A DNA stretch of 64,000 nucleotides from Vermamoeba vermiformis. Taxonomy: Eukaryota. Positions 3,609 to 27,800 of this stretch are shown one piece after another (the stretch's first letter is position 1; the number at the start of each line of letters is the position of its first letter). A program made the translations under genes and the position numbers. Location: assembly GCA_045837725.1 (NCBI GenBank), contig JBEWZL010000178.1, positions 124,001-188,000 of the forward strand. The letters are read 5' to 3'. A model generated the notes under the pieces. The model worked only from the letters and a program-made list of their open reading frames with translations. It ran no database searches and was not told the DNA's origin.

Positions 3609-6600
3609 ATGACGGAACAAAGAAGCGGCTTTTCTAGGCTGGGATTGGCCTTGAATAGCAAACCCGTTATTATTTTGCTTTTTATTGGATTGTGGATGAA
3701 TTGCATGGCTGCACCGCCGAAAATTACCGATTTTACATATAGATTCAAGCAATTAGAGTTGATAGACACCGTTTTGGACGCAATTACGGTCACGGCGAAA
3801 TTCGATCAAGAAGTATTTCATAATGTAACGTGCAGCGACCCGTCGGAACAAGAGCCTGCTATATTCAGCCCATGTTGTATATATAACAACGTTACTGGCT
3901 GCGTAAACAGTGGTTACAACAAAGTTCAATGCATGGATTATGCTCATCCGAGCCTCAACAACAGCATTGTTTACGACCAGTATATTTACTACTACGCACA
4001 CGTAGAGAACTACGCAACATGCCATTCAGTAACAATAGAAAATCACGCCAGCATAGGTAATGTAATCAACGGCTCTTGTATTTACGGATCCAAATACTTA
4101 AAAATTAATAACCGATTTAATTTTACACATGGTATTAAGCACTTCTAGTGCGATTGTATTTTAATAATTTAGCGCGGTAGTTGATTCTCCCAAACTAAAA
4201 TTAGCTATTATTTTTGTGTTCAATTTTTTTTAATAATCATACTCAAGGAGGCCTAAATCAAGCTTCTTCCGACCTAAAATTCGAGTATAATGTTTCAATT
4301 AGATTCTCCAGTTTTGCAAAGAATATTTACCGTGGCCAATCGCGTGCGGTGAACACCCAATTGAAGTATGATTTTTAATTGATTTAATTTGGCTAGGGTT
4401 GGGCTACTTGATGGTATCAGTGCGAGGAGATGAAGCAACGGTGTACAATACTGCGGATTTTTTGGGTCTGACTTACGGAGGTGCAGCGCTTCCTATGTGT
4501 TGTAGCGAAATCCGTCGCAGAAACCCGAGTTGGACTGGTGATCTTTATTTTGGCGTAATTGGAAGCGCACCGTCAATAGTAGATGTCAGACTATGGAGTA
4601 AGCCCGATAATCCTTGCGAGAATTTTGCTTGGCGGAATTTCAAACGATCCTCGAAAAGATCTCGCTTGCTTCAATCAATTTTGACCGTTATTAACACGTC
4701 ATTTCATTTAGACGATACCAAATTGCCTATTGATAGGTTTTGGCATCAACGTAAGTATATTGACAACATTGCTACCTCGAAAATTATTGCTGATTCGATT
4801 GTTTATTCTAAAAATAGCTCCTGTCACTGTCTCGTGCGATGGTTACCAATTTGGCGTAAAAGATTGCTTGAATAATGTTGGCTGCTTTTTTACTCCTCCT
4901 ACGGTTGACCCTTTGTTTGATCTGGCGAAATTAATCAGGTACTAAAAATTGTTCATTATTCACTGAACCGCTTATTCACTGAAAATCTTGTAGTGCAATC
5001 GAAGGTTTTAATATAATTCCATTACAACATTCAGTTGCTATTATTACAAGACAAGTTCAGTACCGCAATCTTGAGGTAACGTTTTATTTCAGATAAAATT
5101 CAGAAGTATTTGTTAATAGTTTACTCTATAGAACGCAAACGTAGTATTTCCGTTCCCTATTGCCCGATTACAAGATTCAAGCTGCAAATATTCATTCCCG
5201 ACGTTGGTGAATAGTGCAGGAGAAGTGGTTGAAAGCGTTGGTCCTCCAACTTTCAAACGGATTGAATGTAACAAGGACGCATATGTCAATAATGTAGAGC
5301 GTAAGTACATACCAATAATATGCATAATAATCCTTATTAATGCTTTTTGAACAATTTTCAGTGTTCCGAAAGTACGTCGATAATTTGGGTCAGACACAAA
5401 CGGTCACATTTGCAGACGCAGGTGTTGCGTTATTAAAGGTATAGTACCACCAATGTATTAAAGGTACCTAGCGGTAATAATATTAATCAATTAGGTTCTA
5501 CCTTTTGTCGTGGCTGATGCGTGGGTCGCGTGCAATGAGCTTGTCAAAGCTGATTTTCTGAAGCAATCCACGGAACAAGTGAACATCCTTCAAACAACAA
5601 ATTGCTACGAAACATTTGCGTCTGAGACTTATTTGAACGATTCGTGTTGTAATCCCGAGTACGTATAACGCAACCATAACTACAGTCAAGCTAACTTGCC
5701 CCTTCAGTATGCAATTGATCGAATGTTGTGCTGCACGTGATGTTGTGGCCAGTGCTGACAAGTACGAGATCATTTCAGACAACGTCCAAGCAGCTTGTTC
5801 TGCGTACCGTTGCTCTCTCGTAAGTACACACACGTGAATGAATTTGACACGTGTCAAAGTGTCACTTTTAACACGGCTAATAGAATAACCTTGGCGACTA
5901 CATGGTGTTATCTGCTTCGTCTGCTGATCGAAGATCTGGCTGTGCCACTCGCAGTACTGAGGTCAGTCAAATCCATTTGCTACGATTGTTTTTTCTGACA
6001 CCCGTTACTTAGGCGACCAATGCAATCTTCACTTCGAGAAACGGACTTTTTGCTTGCATTCAGAATTTCAATCCTCAATATTGCAATTATGAGTACGTTT
6101 AGTCCATTAGATCTCACAAATCGATAACTAATTGCATTTTTGTAGTGTCCAATGTCGATCTACTGACATACGCTCAGTGTGCCTGCCTTCGCATTACTGC
6201 TCAATTCCATGCTCAACAGATTACGACTGCATCACTGGCTCGTGTACAACTTTCCCGTACACGAATGTTTCGACGTGTCAAACTCTTTCAACGGACCAAC
6301 TCGCTTCACTAAACGATACCAGTTTGATGGACCTTGGGTTGAAGGTAACACATAGGTTAATTAAATAGACCAAACAAATTATAATGGTCCTTTCGTAGTG
6401 TATGGAGCTAAACTTGGACGAAATTATTTTGTTTTTCATTAAACAAAACCAAGGCTTACCAGGTAAGATTTAACTTACATAATGATTATCTGTTGCTCAT
6501 TCGATCCTAGTGACTGCTACGCGTGATGAGTTGATCAGTGCTTTAATTGCAAATGGCACCGACCCGCAATGTCAAGGCATTGCTCCTGCTGACACCGAAG

Positions 6601-21570: not shown

Positions 21571-21900
21571 TATCAAGAAGCTTTATACTGAAGTTAATTC
21601 TATTCTATTTCAATGCTTTATATATGCTTGGTTGTTGAGGCTGTCTCGTCAATTTTATTTATTCTACGACGATGTGACGGCGTGTACACACTTTGTTTTC
21701 TGGGAACCACGGTTGTGACCGTGTGTGTATTCTCCAGATGCTGTGATCATTAAAAAGGAGAACAATGAGTGTTCAATCGTACGAAAATAAGATCTTTACA
21801 AAATTGACAAGATTTCAGCCCAGATTTCGTTCGACCAGATTCGCAGTAACTTTAAATCGAACAATGAACAATCAATAACCACAATTGAATATTAATTATT

Positions 21901-24763
21901 ATGGAACATAAGAAAAACGGAAAGATGAAGAAGCACCGCTTCTGCTCTTGGTGCTTTAAAAAGACAGATCACCGATTGAAAGAGGAACATATGATTGGAC
22001 GTGATATGTACGAGTGCCTTAATTGCTTTGGCAATGTATGCGAGTGCATTAGCTGCGAAGGTAATTATGAGTTGAAATTACTAAAAATCGAAAAATTTTC
22101 AATAAAATCTTTATTTAATTCCTTAATATTGATATGTATTACTGATAATATGACTCTATTTATTTCATATTGGAAAATTAATAATATTTATGTTGCTTGT
22201 TATGCAATAATAAATCAATTTTCGCGAAACTTTCGGTGATTCGGCGGTGGTTGCCTCTGCATGTATTGACATAAATAAAATTTCATAGGCATGGCAAGAC
22301 GATACGACGATAAATCCGCCGATAAACTTTGCTTCAAGTGCGATCCCAGATTCACAAGTACGTAACCGATCTACCGTCACGACGCCGTCGTTACTTACCA
22401 TTTATCAATATTTGCAGATGAGGACGAAGAGTCGCTGAGCGAAATGGGCTGGTGCTCGTGGTGTTTATTGCACACTCAGCAGATCTTGGTTCAACCCAGT
22501 CTCATCACGCGCAACGTGTACAAATGCAGTCACTGTCACAGACGAACATTGTCTTGCAGAAGTACGTCAACACGATGTTATTTATATAGGTCCCGGTCAT
22601 AACTCATTCCATCTCCTTTTAGGCTGTCGTGAAGGATTTGTGCGTGGCCACGGGTCTTACGATGACCAGGTACGCACGGAATATTTTATTCGTTAACGAA
22701 GTTGCTAATGACCTAATGCAGTTATGCCTCAAATGCGACGGAACTATTGAGCACTGGCACGAGAGAGAACTCAATTTCCAAAAGTTGTCACGTCCTGGCT
22801 GGTGTTCGTGGTGCCTCGATTACAGCCGTCATCAGTTGGAACAAGTAAGCACTTTGGATAATAATCTATTCGTTATTAATTGCTAAATCACCTCAGGTCA
22901 ACCAAGTACGTCGCAGTGTGTACATGTGCATTCAATGTCAAAACCGCACGCTGCCGTGTAACTCGTGCAACATTGGAATGACACGCGGCGGCGCAGGATG
23001 GGACGACGATAATTGTAGCGTTTGCACTGAGGACTATAAGCATCAAGGCAAAAACCACCCTGAAATCTTCGACAAAGCAACTCCAAACGAGGTCAGTTTT
23101 TGACACGTGGTGCCGTTCATTTACCTCAAGGCACGTGTAGCTAACATACCTTTGCAGATGCAAGATGACGTAAAGAAAGCATTCGAGATTGCAACGGATA
23201 TCGACAAGAACTACTTCCTGAAGTGGCTGTTGATGCAAGCTAGGAAAGATGTCATGGTCAAACAGAGCAGAACTGAAGAGCTTGTGCGCAAGGAGATGGT
23301 AAGCATCGTAGCTCAAAAACGCTTTACAGATAGACGAAAATTTGTCGCGAGATTTGAGTTGTCCGGCTGAGAAAGGGCACAGAGAACATTTTTCGTTTAG
23401 TCTAGTGGTCGGGACATGGTTTTTTTTTCAGGACGGAGCATCAAGCACCTATGGCCGAGTTGGTCTAAGGCGTTAGACTCAAGTTCTAATGGGGGTAACT
23501 CCGCGTGGGTTCGAATCCCACTGGGTGCAAGCAATTAATTTTTTTTTTTGCCTTCGCTCCCTTCCTCATGCTCTGTTTTGTTTGTCTTCTTGCTTAGCGA
23601 AGCACTGGGTGCAAACGAATATATTATTTTTTTCCCTCGCACTCAACTTGAGCGGATCTGTCGTTTTGTTGACTGGCTTGCGTTAGTGACTGACAGTTTT
23701 CTTAGGCCAGACATTCCGAGTTCCGTGATCTTGCTGCGCAATCAGGCATGGTTAGGCCGTTCTTGATCTTAGTAGCCATGCCCGCGTTCTTCAGAAACAA
23801 AGTCGCGAACTTTTTGGGTTGGACGCTCTTCACGCAACGTAAGTTCCAATTGGGCCTATTGTTTCGTCTTTATTATTAACGTACAACATTTACAGCCTAC
23901 TTTGGAGACGCTCATGAAGAAGCTTGGGTGATTTTATCCAAAGACATGTCAGGCATGATGTCACGAGCAATCAAAGCCTACGAACGCATCGCATTGCTGA
24001 ACCGTATGCCATGGTACGTCCTACCTATCAAGTAGATGTAACTTTTTGACTCATTTGTGACGTCAGGTACAATGTGGTTTATCGAGTGACAGCTGAAATC
24101 TTCCGACGGGTTGATGCTCCTGAAATGGACTACGACGATGCCGTTAAGATCTCTAACCTGCGTAATAACGATTACATGAAGAACATTGAACAAGAGTTCT
24201 TGTTGAAGTTAGGCGAGTTGCAACAACGCGTAAGTGTCAAAAGTCATTCGTGTCAAAATCCGTCTAATTCTAATTTTGATTGACAGACTGCTCAAATGCC
24301 CGACAAAGTGCCCAAGACTCAAGCCGAGATTGAGGCCGATGAAATCATTCGCGAACGAGTCATTAAGAACGCGGGTATTAATAGACCTGAAGTACTCAAC
24401 TATGCCGTTCGGTTGACTAAGACGATTGTTGGTGCTCCCGGTCAATTGACTCTTGCTGTATTTGCTGTCAACACTGCTGCCACGATCCTTCCTGCCCTCT
24501 CTGGCGTAGCCGTAAGTAATTTAGTGTCACTTGTCATACGCTACAATACTTAGTTACGATGTTATCAGGTGCCGCTCACGTCAGCCGCAGCGTTAGTTAC
24601 AACTCCTCTGTTCATCATCGGTATCTTCAGCTTGATCAAAGACGCAATCACGTTAGGTCTCGGCAGCTCCGAAGGCCGATTGTTCGGTCCTTTGATGGTG
24701 ATTATGAACCAAAAGATCTTGTTGGCCGTTGAAGGCATTGATGTTGAAGACTTCATGCCCTAA
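21901..24763 (+). CDS. Uncharacterised protein with three 8-Cys (CxxC x4) repeats and a hydrophobic C-terminal domain; multi-exon
   Basis: Repeats begin FCSWC, GWCSWC, GWCSWC; the exons I joined have in-frame GT-AG junctions. Confidence 0.75.
23345..23633 (+). repeat. Copy 1 of a ~290-nt tRNA-Leu-containing intronic module
   Basis: Near-identical to the reverse complement of 26458..26750. Confidence 0.95.
23445..23529 (+). tRNA. trnL-CAA: tRNA-Leu(CAA), inside intron 23299..23705
   Basis: Acceptor stem GCACCTA/TGGGTGC, anticodon arm TTAGA-CTCAAGT-TCTAA, long variable arm, GGTTCGAATCC B-box, downstream T-run. Confidence 0.97.
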
Positions 24764-24861
24764 GATAAAAAACAGTCTTCTCTTGTAAATAGAGGTTTAT
24801 TATCGAAGCAATAAACTCTTTCTTGTAACTAGAAGTTAGTGTTGTGTGGTAGCAGATCCGC

Positions 24862-27800
24862 TTAGATAACGAACAACTTGACGAACTCAGTGACGGGCAT
24901 GTTGCAGAAGTCTTCCAACTTGCTTCTCAAGCAGGTGTCAACGATGCGTTGAATTTGCTTTTGAGGGAAGCGAGTGGCAATGTTGTGAAGGAACTTCTTC
25001 TCGATCTCGGGGATGGCTTCTTGACGTCTGCGGCGGTGACCCAAGGGGTACTTGATCTCGATCACGTCAGTCTTGGTACCATCAGCGAACTCGACTTGAA
25101 CAGCGTTGGCAATGCTGCGCTCAGCAGGGTCCAAGTAGCTGACAGAGTAGGACTCGTCTTCGGTGACTTCCATCTTCTCTCTCAAGGCGTCAATTCTGGG
25201 GTCCTTGGCGAAGTGATCCTCGTAGTGATCAGCAGTCAAGTTGCCAAAGATGAGACCGATGGCAGTCATGTACTGCAAGCAGTGGTCACGATCAGCAGGG
25301 TTGACGAGAGGACCCTTCTTGTCGATGATGCGAATAGCAGACTTGTGAGTCTTGATGTAGACCTTCTTGACTTGGTCCAAGCGAGGAGCGACTTGAGGGT
25401 GCAACTTGATGGCACATTCGACAGCAGTTTGCGCGTGGAATTCCTAGCGCGGGTAAGTACAATAATTATAGATAGTGCAGAGCAATTAAACTTACAGCAG
25501 GGAAAGAGACCTTGAACAAAACGTTCTCCATGACGTACTCCTCGAAGGGGCGTTGGAACTTGAGGGGTTGGCCCTTGAACAAAACATCGGAGAAACCCCA
25601 CTTGGGAGCAGAGAGAGCGGTCTTGTAGCCCATCTCGCCCTTCAAGGACATCAAGGCCAAACGAACACCACGGGAAGTAGCATCACCAGCAGCCCAAGAT
25701 TTGCGAGAACCAGTGTTGGGGAAGTGTCTAGGGTTAAGTCAGTACAAGTTTTTATTTTAAAATGGAAAAAAGTATTTGCAATGTTATGTTGTTGCATAAA
25801 ATCGGAGTCAACAAGGCAAACACGCTTTGGCAGTGCGCAAACAGAAAGCAAAAAAAAAAAGAAATTGGATTCGCAGGGTTTCGATCCCCGTACCTCCCGC
25901 ATGCTAAGCGGACGTGCTACCAAGTGCACCACGAACCCGTTGGTTGATTGGCTCGAGGGGGAGCACGTGAGCAGGTCACTACAGACCACCCGAATAACAC
26001 CTTCCTGACTGGGTTCGGGGGAAAGAAGTTCCTCCCGGTGTTTGACCGATCGGTGTAGGTTTCAAATTGATACTCAATGGGTAACCACGTTCCTTAAATA
26101 GCAAGAAAAAAAAAAATTCGACCCATCAGTTTCAGGAGGTGCCAGTGGTTTCAAGCGACGAAGCGCTGATCGCCCAGAAAAGATTTACCTCTAATTCAGC
26201 AAAAAGGTAATCGACAGCAGCAGGATTTGAACCTGCGCGGGCAAGCCCAGATGATTTCTAGTCATCCTCCTTAGACCACTCGGACATGCTGTCTTGTTGA
26301 AGGAGCAGCGCGGCCCCATCATGCGCCACCAGGATGGATCGGGCAAACGCACTCGCGTCAACTTCAACAAAAAAAGTAATTGCAAGTGCCGCATCAAACA
26401 AGCCAATTGCTTCACAATAAGGAAGGCTACTACGGACAAAACAAAGCGTGCTTGGGCAAAAAAATAATAATATTTGTTTGCGCCCAGTGCCTCGCGAAGC
26501 AAGAAGAACAAACAAAACAGAGCATTGAGGAAGGGAGCGAAGGCAAAAAAAAAAATTTAATTGCTTGCACCCAGTGGGATTCGAACCCACGCGGAGTTAC
26601 CCCCATTAGAACTTGAGTCTAACGCCTTAGACCAACTCGGCCATAGGTGCTTGATGTTCCGAACCTCAAAAAAAAGCGTGTGCCGACCACTAGACTAAAC
26701 GAAATATGTTCTCTGTGTCCTTTCTCAGCCCGACAACTCAAATCTCGCGAATAAATTTGTATATAATGATGCTTACCTGTAAGTTCGCAAGCTGTGACCA
26801 TCGACCCAACATTGGCTTACGGTGTTCAAGATGGCCTCGCGATCGCCACCGAGGAGACCAGCAGAGACAGAAGCGGAGGCTAACTTGACAAGCAAGACGT
26901 GATCCAAACCAACAGCGTTGAAACTGTTTTCCAAAGCCAAACCACCCTGGTAAGAATTAGCGCGTGTAATCATCCATCCGAATCTTCAGCTACGTACTTG
27001 GATTTCGTAGGTCTTAATCAAACCGTGGAGGACGTCCTTCATAGTCAAAGGAGCCTTGCCTTCAGCGACACGTTGGTTGGAGATGTACTCGCAAACAGCA
27101 AGAATAGCACCCAAGTTGTCAGAAGGGTGACCTAGACATTTGTTAACACGAATACTCCAATAGAGGCACTACTAACCCCACTCAGCGGCCAACCAAGTGT
27201 CCTACAATGATTTGTTAGGCACGGTAAAATAACGAGGTGACATTGTTAAATGACTCACATTGAAGTCCAACCAACGGATGATAGTGCCGATGTTGAAGGC
27301 ACCCTGAACAGGATCCAAGACGAACTACATATTGCGGTCAATGCACGTTCGCAACACGCTAAGTAATCGAAAGAAAAATACCTGAGTTCCAGGGACGTGA
27401 ACTCCGTTAGGAACGACGGTGCCTTTAAAGTCATTAATACGGATATTTTTCCTTTAAAAAAATATTCAACATACCAGGGACGATGGGGCCCAAGTGCTTG
27501 GTGCACTCGGGGAATTGCAAAGCGAGCATACCACAACCTGATCACAAACAAAATATAAAATTGCAATTACACCATGACAATTATCAAATAATGTATAGAA
27601 TATTATAGAACAATTAATCATTAAATTTGTTTCGTTTGGGCATCCGAAAAAATTTCATCTAGTTTTTAACGTGAAATATTCGATTGAGTAACAGCTATTT
27701 GTCAATTTCGCTCACCTAAGGCATCGAGCAAAGTATATCTGGCGGTGCTCAAAGCTTCTTGGCTCTTGCAAGAGAAGTTTTGCACGTAGTCAGTAATTTG

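Follow-up and report, generated by a model that had tools for sequence, protein, structure and literature searches.

Introner elements and other forms of intron gain work through copied intron sequence. The nesting of tRNA genes within introns has, to our knowledge, been described mainly for nematodes. The classic case of conversion among tRNA genes is said to be that of three unlinked serine tRNA genes of Schizosaccharomyces pombe, reported by Amstutz et al. in 1985. Intergenic conversion is an established cause of concerted evolution among dispersed tRNA genes and a known mode of tRNA family evolution (PMC4981973). In Caenorhabditis, 44-47% of tRNA genes are reported to be intronic, 56% of those being sense to the host, and specific tRNA-host pairs to be conserved between species (PMC4999229). 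A literature search, of incomplete coverage and from which no absence is claimed, returned no account of intron-nested nuclear tRNA genes for fungi or similar short-intron eukaryotes, and the fungal matches listed for intronic tRNA genes were mitochondrial-genome papers only. Here we analyse a stretch of 64,000 nucleotides (64 kb) from Vermamoeba vermiformis (assembly GCA_045837725.1, contig JBEWZL010000178.1, positions 124,001 to 188,000 of the forward strand), referred to as a whole as the window, in which two identical tRNA-Leu(CAA) genes (copies A and B) lie in introns of two unrelated, convergent genes and resemble each other far into their flanks. Comparison with a diverged relative indicates that both tRNA sites are old and that the likeness of their flanks is young, a combination for which concerted evolution is the probable explanation.

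Two tRNA-Leu genes in the introns of convergent genes

ARAGORN was run on the window, and each tRNA call was scored against the Rfam tRNA model (RF00005). The window is eukaryotic DNA with a G+C content of 40%, and its GT..AG introns usually measure 45-66 nt. Four tRNA genes were found, with 49.6-60.1 bits in Rfam (Table 1), and all four are sense to their host genes. By sequence they contain box A/B-like motifs, T-runs of 11, 5 and 11 lie directly behind the Leu, Ser and Ala genes, and a T-rich element is found ~20-30 nt upstream of each tRNA-Leu(CAA). Splicing of the hosts could be followed in X7, a set of transcript-like contigs from a strain a few percent diverged, whose RNA label is a guess and from which all introns are yet removed as in cDNA. 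The X7 contigs skip exactly 407 nt (GT..AG) in one host and 1049 nt (CT..AC on the + strand) in the other, together with every small intron of both genes. Raw RNA reads (X21 and X23, 95-99% like the window) have no depth on the prpD exons at 26786-27107 and are thus silent on the full 1049-nt splice; the RNA-seq libraries used do not capture tRNAs.

The host of copy B is prpD (2-methylcitrate dehydratase), whose exons around the long intron match MmgE_PrpD_N and MmgE_PrpD_C in Pfam and join as ..LRTYR|HFPNTG.. In a protein atlas the last prpD exon fell into bacterially labelled clusters, which is uninformative as to the organism. The host of copy A (21889-24763, + strand), here called the Cys-pair-repeat gene, has several exons and encodes a protein in which W/F-C-S-W-C ... 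C-x-x-C motifs recur and the C-terminal part is hydrophobic; Pfam gave no family for any of the four exons tested. The tRNA calls, the intron removal in X7 and the Pfam matches of the prpD exons together place complete tRNA genes in spliced introns of both hosts, and these introns are 7-20 times as long as usual. The stop codons of the two hosts are 98 nt apart; the ordinary small introns between 22600 and 27400 total ~600 nt against these 98 nt of intergenic DNA, and introns may be the main permissive space here.

Much of this had been proposed in an earlier sequence-only reading of the same DNA. The two unrelated convergent hosts with real introns are supported by the X7 skips and by Pfam in the case of prpD, and the differing intron phases that it gave follow from the reading frames (..GAG ATG|GT, phase 0, for intron A; ..TAC AG|GT..AG|A, phase 2, for intron B). 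A tRNA-Leu is indeed present in each intron, whereas the picture of a single tRNA gene in the prpD intron has to be given up, as that intron carries a three-tRNA cluster (Leu-Ser-Ala). The statement that each tRNA-Leu copy is sense to its host is true but automatic, because an inverted pair sits in two convergent genes.

Table 1. Positions of the introns, tRNA genes and repeated segments in the window, and of two tRNA genes in the prpD intron of the relative (contig L004)
Feature	Position	Strand	Description and basis
Intron A, Cys-pair-repeat ('CxxC') gene	23299-23705	+	407 nt, phase 0; X7 skip, GT..AG; exons 23158-23298 and 23706-23838
Intron B, prpD (2-methylcitrate dehydratase)	25728-26776	-	1049 nt, phase 2; exons 26777-26946 and 25496-25727
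tRNA-Leu(CAA), copy A	23445-23529	+	ARAGORN, Rfam RF00005 60.1 bits; no tRNA intron; T11 run after
tRNA-Leu(CAA), copy B	26566-26650	-	ARAGORN, Rfam 60.1 bits; 85/85 identical to copy A
tRNA-Ser(AGA)	26212-26293	-	ARAGORN, Rfam 55.4 bits; prpD intron, sense
tRNA-Ala(AGC)	25866-25938	-	ARAGORN, Rfam 49.6 bits; prpD intron, sense; T11 after
Block, copy A	23338-23636	+	107-nt upstream flank, tRNA-Leu, 107-nt downstream flank; BLASTN against 26758-26455
Block, copy B	26455-26758	-	BLASTN/alignment against copy A
tRNA-Leu 3'-end remnant, copy A	23603-23637	+	11 nt, with own trailer and T-run; direct-repeat families D1, D2
tRNA-Leu 3'-end remnant, copy B	26455-26489	-	Direct-repeat families D1, D2
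Putative tRNA-like 5' fragment, copy A	23396-23428	+	Box-A-like GTCTAGTGGTC able to pair as D-arm, then T9; inspection
Putative tRNA-like 5' fragment, copy B	26667-26699	-	Inspection
tRNA-Ser of relative, prpD intron	L004 3724-3808		
tRNA-Ala of relative, prpD intron	L004 4018-4092		

The block shared by both introns

The two copies form an inverted repeat 3 kb apart, aligned by BLASTN over 304 columns with 92.4% identity (E ~1e-121). No further copy of either flank occurs within the 64-kb window (the best remaining matches have E 0.74 and 4e-4, the second being a partial internal repeat). The block of ~290 nt with an identical tRNA-Leu(CAA) and ~100-nt flanks, as described in the sequence-only reading, was thus recovered; its distance from the splice donors had been put at 46 and 26 nt and is in fact 39 nt in A and 18 nt in B. 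At its other end the block stops short of the acceptors, by 69 nt in A and by 727 nt in B.

Copy number was judged from X1, a set of DNA unitigs possibly from the same sample as the window assembly, so that the independent check of the assembly comes from the contigs of the relative described below. The tRNA body has a unitig depth of 1974, ~6x the single-copy depth of ~310, and the flank unitigs have depths of 222 and 261; unitig depth is a poor measure of copy number, and since the flanks lie at or below single-copy depth, other genomic Leu copies appear to be without near-identical versions of these flanks. In the upstream flank one 30-mer, at 23396, has a third context in X1, behind the apparent 3' end of another tRNA. 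Short-read unitigs break at each tRNA, and a collapsed or mis-joined tRNA repeat might have produced the pair during assembly. However, in the X1 unitigs both flank variants run, with 0 differences, into the unique exons of their respective genes, the copies differ at 25 flank positions, and contigs of a different organism, from other samples, have the same arrangement, which leaves such an artefact with a negligible probability.

Both copies contain, 84 nt downstream of the 3' end of the intact tRNA-Leu, a remnant of a tRNA-Leu 3' end, the trailer of which begins AAAC like the trailers of the relative; the intact genes of the window have AAGC at this place. The remnant reads as a trace of an older rearrangement that took place before the last transfer. 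The segment upstream of the tRNA with a box-A-like motif (Table 1) may be a fragment of a tRNA as well, and looks like debris of a tRNA-cluster rearrangement; a search of the flanks in Rfam, at E up to 10, gave neither a partial tRNA nor any other RNA family. Candidates of another kind were also considered: a tRNA-derived SINE was rejected because both copies have an intact tRNA of identical sequence, the terminator follows at once, no tail or duplication was seen, and the depth is that of a single copy.

Old tRNA sites with young flanks

Metagenome contigs were scanned with a 41-nt piece of the tRNA-Leu, which gave six contigs (L001-L006) from a relative, R, and none of the six is of the window's own type. 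One of them (L004) is the prpD ortholog and has Leu, Ser and Ala in the corresponding intron. Two others (L003 and L005, mutually 100% identical over 1641 nt) represent the ortholog of the Cys-pair-repeat gene, which is conserved at 82-95% amino-acid identity per exon; the distance from the tRNA-Leu to the acceptor of intron A, after which the exon of L003 starts at 249, is 156 nt in these contigs against 176 nt in the window. Both intron positions, the comparison of which had been suggested in the sequence-only reading, are therefore found in R, prpD with its donor after the same ..TAC AG codon and the Cys-pair-repeat gene with the same conserved acceptor codon, and the tRNA-host pairing is conserved, with a tRNA-Leu in each of the two orthologous introns. 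Over 441 aligned codons, the window and R share 91% amino-acid identity, with a dS of 1.31 and a K of 1.0 at four-fold sites. The presence of tRNA-Leu in both introns of R at this distance indicates that both tRNA sites are older than a split so deep that neutral positions have reached saturation.

The flanks have a different history. When flank homology was scored as z against 300 shuffles, the two window copies gave z 41 upstream and z 47 downstream (0/300 shuffles reached the score in either case), whereas the orthologous comparisons gave z -0.4 for window A against the A flank of R (231/300 shuffles) and z 1.3 for window B against the B flank of R (40/300 shuffles). Paralogous flanks within a genome are thus more alike than orthologous flanks between genomes. 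A weak likeness of the window downstream flank to the module flank of R (z 1.0-2.5, 9-45/300 shuffles) was not counted as homology. The leader and trailer are also of a genome-specific type, CATCAA| ... |AAGCAATT in both window loci and CAACAAAAA| ... |AAACAAAT in all four loci of R, and the window segment from -107 to -40 is without counterpart in the prpD intron of R, where donor and tRNA are 66 nt apart. Between A and B, K amounts to 0.155 in the upstream and 0.10 in the downstream flank, with 0/85 differences in the tRNA; set against the neutral distance to R, the identity of the flanks is about ten times younger than the sites. From old sites whose flanks have become alike only recently, copying between resident paralogs is indicated and not a travelling intron, and ectopic gene conversion or paralog-templated repair between the resident tRNA-Leu copies, that is concerted evolution, is in our view the probable explanation. 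The sequence-only reading had named a local inverted duplication or gene conversion in one breath, and it is the conversion part that stands, with sites older than the split, flanks 10-16% diverged and orthologous flanks without homology.

A recent local inverted duplication, by which ~300 nt from one intron would have been copied in this lineage into a previously tRNA-free intron, accords with a pair that is inverted, just 3 kb apart and 92% identical, and with a locus in which introns are nearly the sole non-coding space. We regard it as unlikely, because R has a tRNA-Leu in both introns and the duplication would require either that a tRNA-Leu had been lost and gained again or that the same intron had received an insertion in parallel; the first of these courses is, with present data, indistinguishable from conversion. 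Selection might instead have kept the flanks alike without recent copying, through an extended promoter, a leader and trailer or a co-transcribed RNA, and a T-run ~17-28 nt upstream and the CATCAA motif do recur in all copies of both organisms, just as the tRNA-Ala has a conserved upstream motif. This is highly improbable, as the orthologous flanks share nothing beyond ~40 nt upstream and ~20 nt downstream, the segment missing from the prpD intron of R lies within the part that the window copies share, and Rfam finds nothing in the flanks.

The differences between A and B are distributed unevenly over the block: upstream of the tRNA they number 6/73 distally and 9/34 proximally, the tRNA itself has 0/85, and downstream they number 2/73 in the first segment and 8/34 in the one with the remnant (chi-square 18.3, p 0.0004, for segments picked after viewing the alignment and including low-complexity stretches). 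No substitution occurs between -7 and about +61 relative to the tRNA-Leu. This mosaic suggests tracts of different age.

Splice donors and the copying of introns

Both introns start with GTAAGCATC, as had been noted from the sequence, and neither strand of the window has this 9-mer anywhere else. There are 134 GTAAG sites in the window, and the chance that two random ones share the next four bases is 0.016. One possibility offered in the sequence-only reading was the copying of a tRNA-bearing intron unit along with its donor, by which introns could be gained. It finds no support: the homology stops short of the splice sites, the 29 nt (A) and 9 nt (B) that separate GTAAGCATC from the block cannot be aligned, and the GTAAGCA donor of prpD as well as the tRNA-Leu in both introns are already present in R. 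The prpD donor of R, at the same codon, reads GTAAGCAAT, and the common GTAAGCATC is most likely a coincidence on a common GTAAGCA-type donor. An introner-like copied intron was rejected likewise, with splice sites outside the homology and both introns present in the one relative found.

The wider form of this idea, a mobile tRNA-bearing intron module that would carry its own donor and spread introns and tRNA genes in an introner-like manner or by reverse splicing, draws on the GGTAAGCATC at both intron starts (p ~0.016), on the position of the tRNA-Leu modules of R 62-66 nt after the donors of prpD and HMG-CoA synthase, in sense, and on the fact that intronic, sense copies make up 2/2 loci in the window and 3/4 in R. 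It is very unlikely all the same: the homology reaches no donor or acceptor, the 18-42 nt after the donor are unrelated in every locus (z ~0), the 3' ends of introns A and B are unrelated, no target-site duplication was seen at either copy in the window sequence, and the prpD donor GTAAGCA is ancestral. The flank depths in X1, at or below single copy, and two copies of the block in the window give no sign of spread either (depth being a poor measure of copy number, and one 30-mer having its third context), and one module of R (L001/L006) precedes a gene start instead of following a donor.

The proposed course of events

Under concerted evolution, two tRNA-Leu(CAA) genes would have resided for a long time in spliceosomal introns of two convergent polymerase-II genes, the tRNA genes presumably being expressed by polymerase III, to judge from their internal motifs and terminators. 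In the lineage of the window, sequence would then have been copied non-reciprocally from one resident to the other, 3 kb away and inverted, perhaps by ectopic gene conversion or by repair of a break with the paralog as template. The transfer might have been seeded by the common tRNA and its nearest flanks, and it probably occurred more than once. Afterwards the flanks would drift, and the tRNA would stay identical via selection and/or further conversion. To carry ~70 nt of unlike upstream flank, break repair could have been primed in the tRNA region and sealed at the far end without homology.

Several points weigh against this explanation. Classical conversion needs homology on both sides of the tract, and the outer ends of the block have none; the ~70 nt of unlike upstream flank would accordingly require template switching or end joining. 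The count of flank copies is limited to the window and X1, where one upstream 30-mer has a third context. The occurrence of GTAAGCATC just twice in the window (p 0.016) is unexplained beyond the GTAAGCAAT at the prpD donor of the relative. The segments of the mosaic were selected post hoc, and T-runs and AT-rich stretches mutate or misalign readily. Finally, the comparison rests on one relative, and its contigs for the second gene reach only 7 and 19 nt past the tRNA on the upstream side, which leaves the upstream exon and the flank beyond unseen.

Related tRNA modules in the relative

A further contig of R (L002) carries HMG-CoA synthase, with PF08540 matching both flanking exons (profile positions 91-182 and 179-236). 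Its intron of ~840 nt (in the region 885-1760, - strand) contains a tRNA-Leu(CAA) and a tRNA-Ala(AGC), both sense, and its donor lies 62 nt before the tRNA-Leu, against 66 nt in the prpD intron of R. Across hundreds of bases outside the tRNA genes, the modules of R in the prpD intron, in the HMG-CoA synthase intron and at the third locus (L001/L006) share 94-99% identity (94-96% between HMG-CoA synthase and prpD), and the copy of the second gene shares with them only 19 nt upstream, where the contig ends, the tRNA and ~21 nt downstream. A similar process has likewise probably acted in R, given a Leu(-Ser/-Ala) module common to three loci. The eight copies of tRNA-Leu(CAA) seen in the window and R are all identical.

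At the third locus, the module is situated ~120 nt upstream of the start codon of a divergent EH-domain gene. In L006, this Leu-Ser module lies between the start of the EH-domain gene (1450-1556, - strand) and an open reading frame (2332-2724, + strand) that matches only positions 109-223, in the C-terminal half, of the 227-position GlfB_C profile, and no upstream exon for it was found. A tandem repeat with a spacing of 98 nt is located directly upstream of the tRNA-Ser in the prpD intron of R (L004 3384-3731; L006 1984-2086), with a copy number that differs between the two modules.

One might go further and propose that tRNA modules (Leu, Leu-Ser, Leu-Ala, Leu-Ser-Ala) prefer the 5' part of housekeeping-gene introns, always in sense, and are exchanged or seeded between introns as DNA. 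This is conceivable and in our opinion doubtful: intronic modules have so far been seen in prpD, in HMG-CoA synthase and in the Cys-pair-repeat gene, and three independent hosts of this kind, together with one locus that is probably intergenic, do not establish a sense or donor-proximal preference statistically. If it were true, polymerase III genes would be coupled to polymerase II introns in a lineage-specific way, e.g., by targeted integration or repair at transcribed introns, or by tRNA output tied to host transcription, and side effects on splicing might be expected, in view of the extended length of the introns and of a cryptic donor in the tRNA-Ala that is used in RNA reads.

The tRNA-Ala and tRNA-Ser genes of the prpD intron

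That donor is a GT at 25893-25892 (- strand) inside the tRNA-Ala, through which position 25894 is joined to exon position 25727. Four reads in X21 and 13 in X23 have this junction, with the normal prpD acceptor, and the same reads continue upstream into diverged intron sequence. The 25728-25894 (-) junction is a cryptic or stepwise splice using the tRNA gene's own sequence. A CACGTG-containing motif, TGCTCACGTGC, lies ~25-35 nt upstream of the tRNA-Ala(AGC) in the window (25960-25975, - strand), in L004 (~3985-4000) and in L002, and is kept between the window and both copies of the relative despite a dS of ~1.3; it may be an upstream control element. Loose ends in X1 suggest that the upstream flank of the tRNA-Ala is common to other Ala copies in the genome. 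The tRNA-Ser(AGA) of the window and its counterpart in L004 (Table 1) have several stem differences, which involve both strands of the acceptor stem.

Comparison with known systems

Similarity between introns of unrelated genes can mimic intron mobility, and synteny with a diverged relative allows the age of a site to be told apart from that of its sequence, which here leads to concerted evolution. At the same time, a stable, conserved nesting of tRNA genes, including a three-tRNA cluster, is documented in a compact, short-intron eukaryote. A 300-nt inverted repeat in the introns of convergent genes might also serve as a substrate for an inversion that would swap the 3' halves of the two genes, and only non-crossover outcomes would be expected to survive between the repeats.

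With introners, the locus has in common the sequence similarity between introns of unrelated genes; it differs in that the splice sites lie outside the similarity, no target-site duplication was found, there is no sign of many copies in the window or in the X1 depths, and the introns predate the similarity. As in Caenorhabditis, complete tRNA genes lie in spliceosomal introns and the pairing with the host is kept in a diverged relative, whereas here the introns are otherwise short (45-66 nt), all intronic cases are sense, and three tRNA genes are clustered in one intron. The likeness to the concerted evolution of tRNA genes is the closest: paralogs within a genome are identical, the sequence is species-specific, the positions are older than the similarity, and a non-reciprocal transfer is suggested. 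Unlike in the S. pombe case, ~100 nt of non-tRNA flank on each side was also transferred, and the partners are inverted, 3 kb apart and located in introns of protein genes, and are known from sequence and not from crosses. The process is thus a known one, of which this locus provides a new example in a setting that is uncommon.

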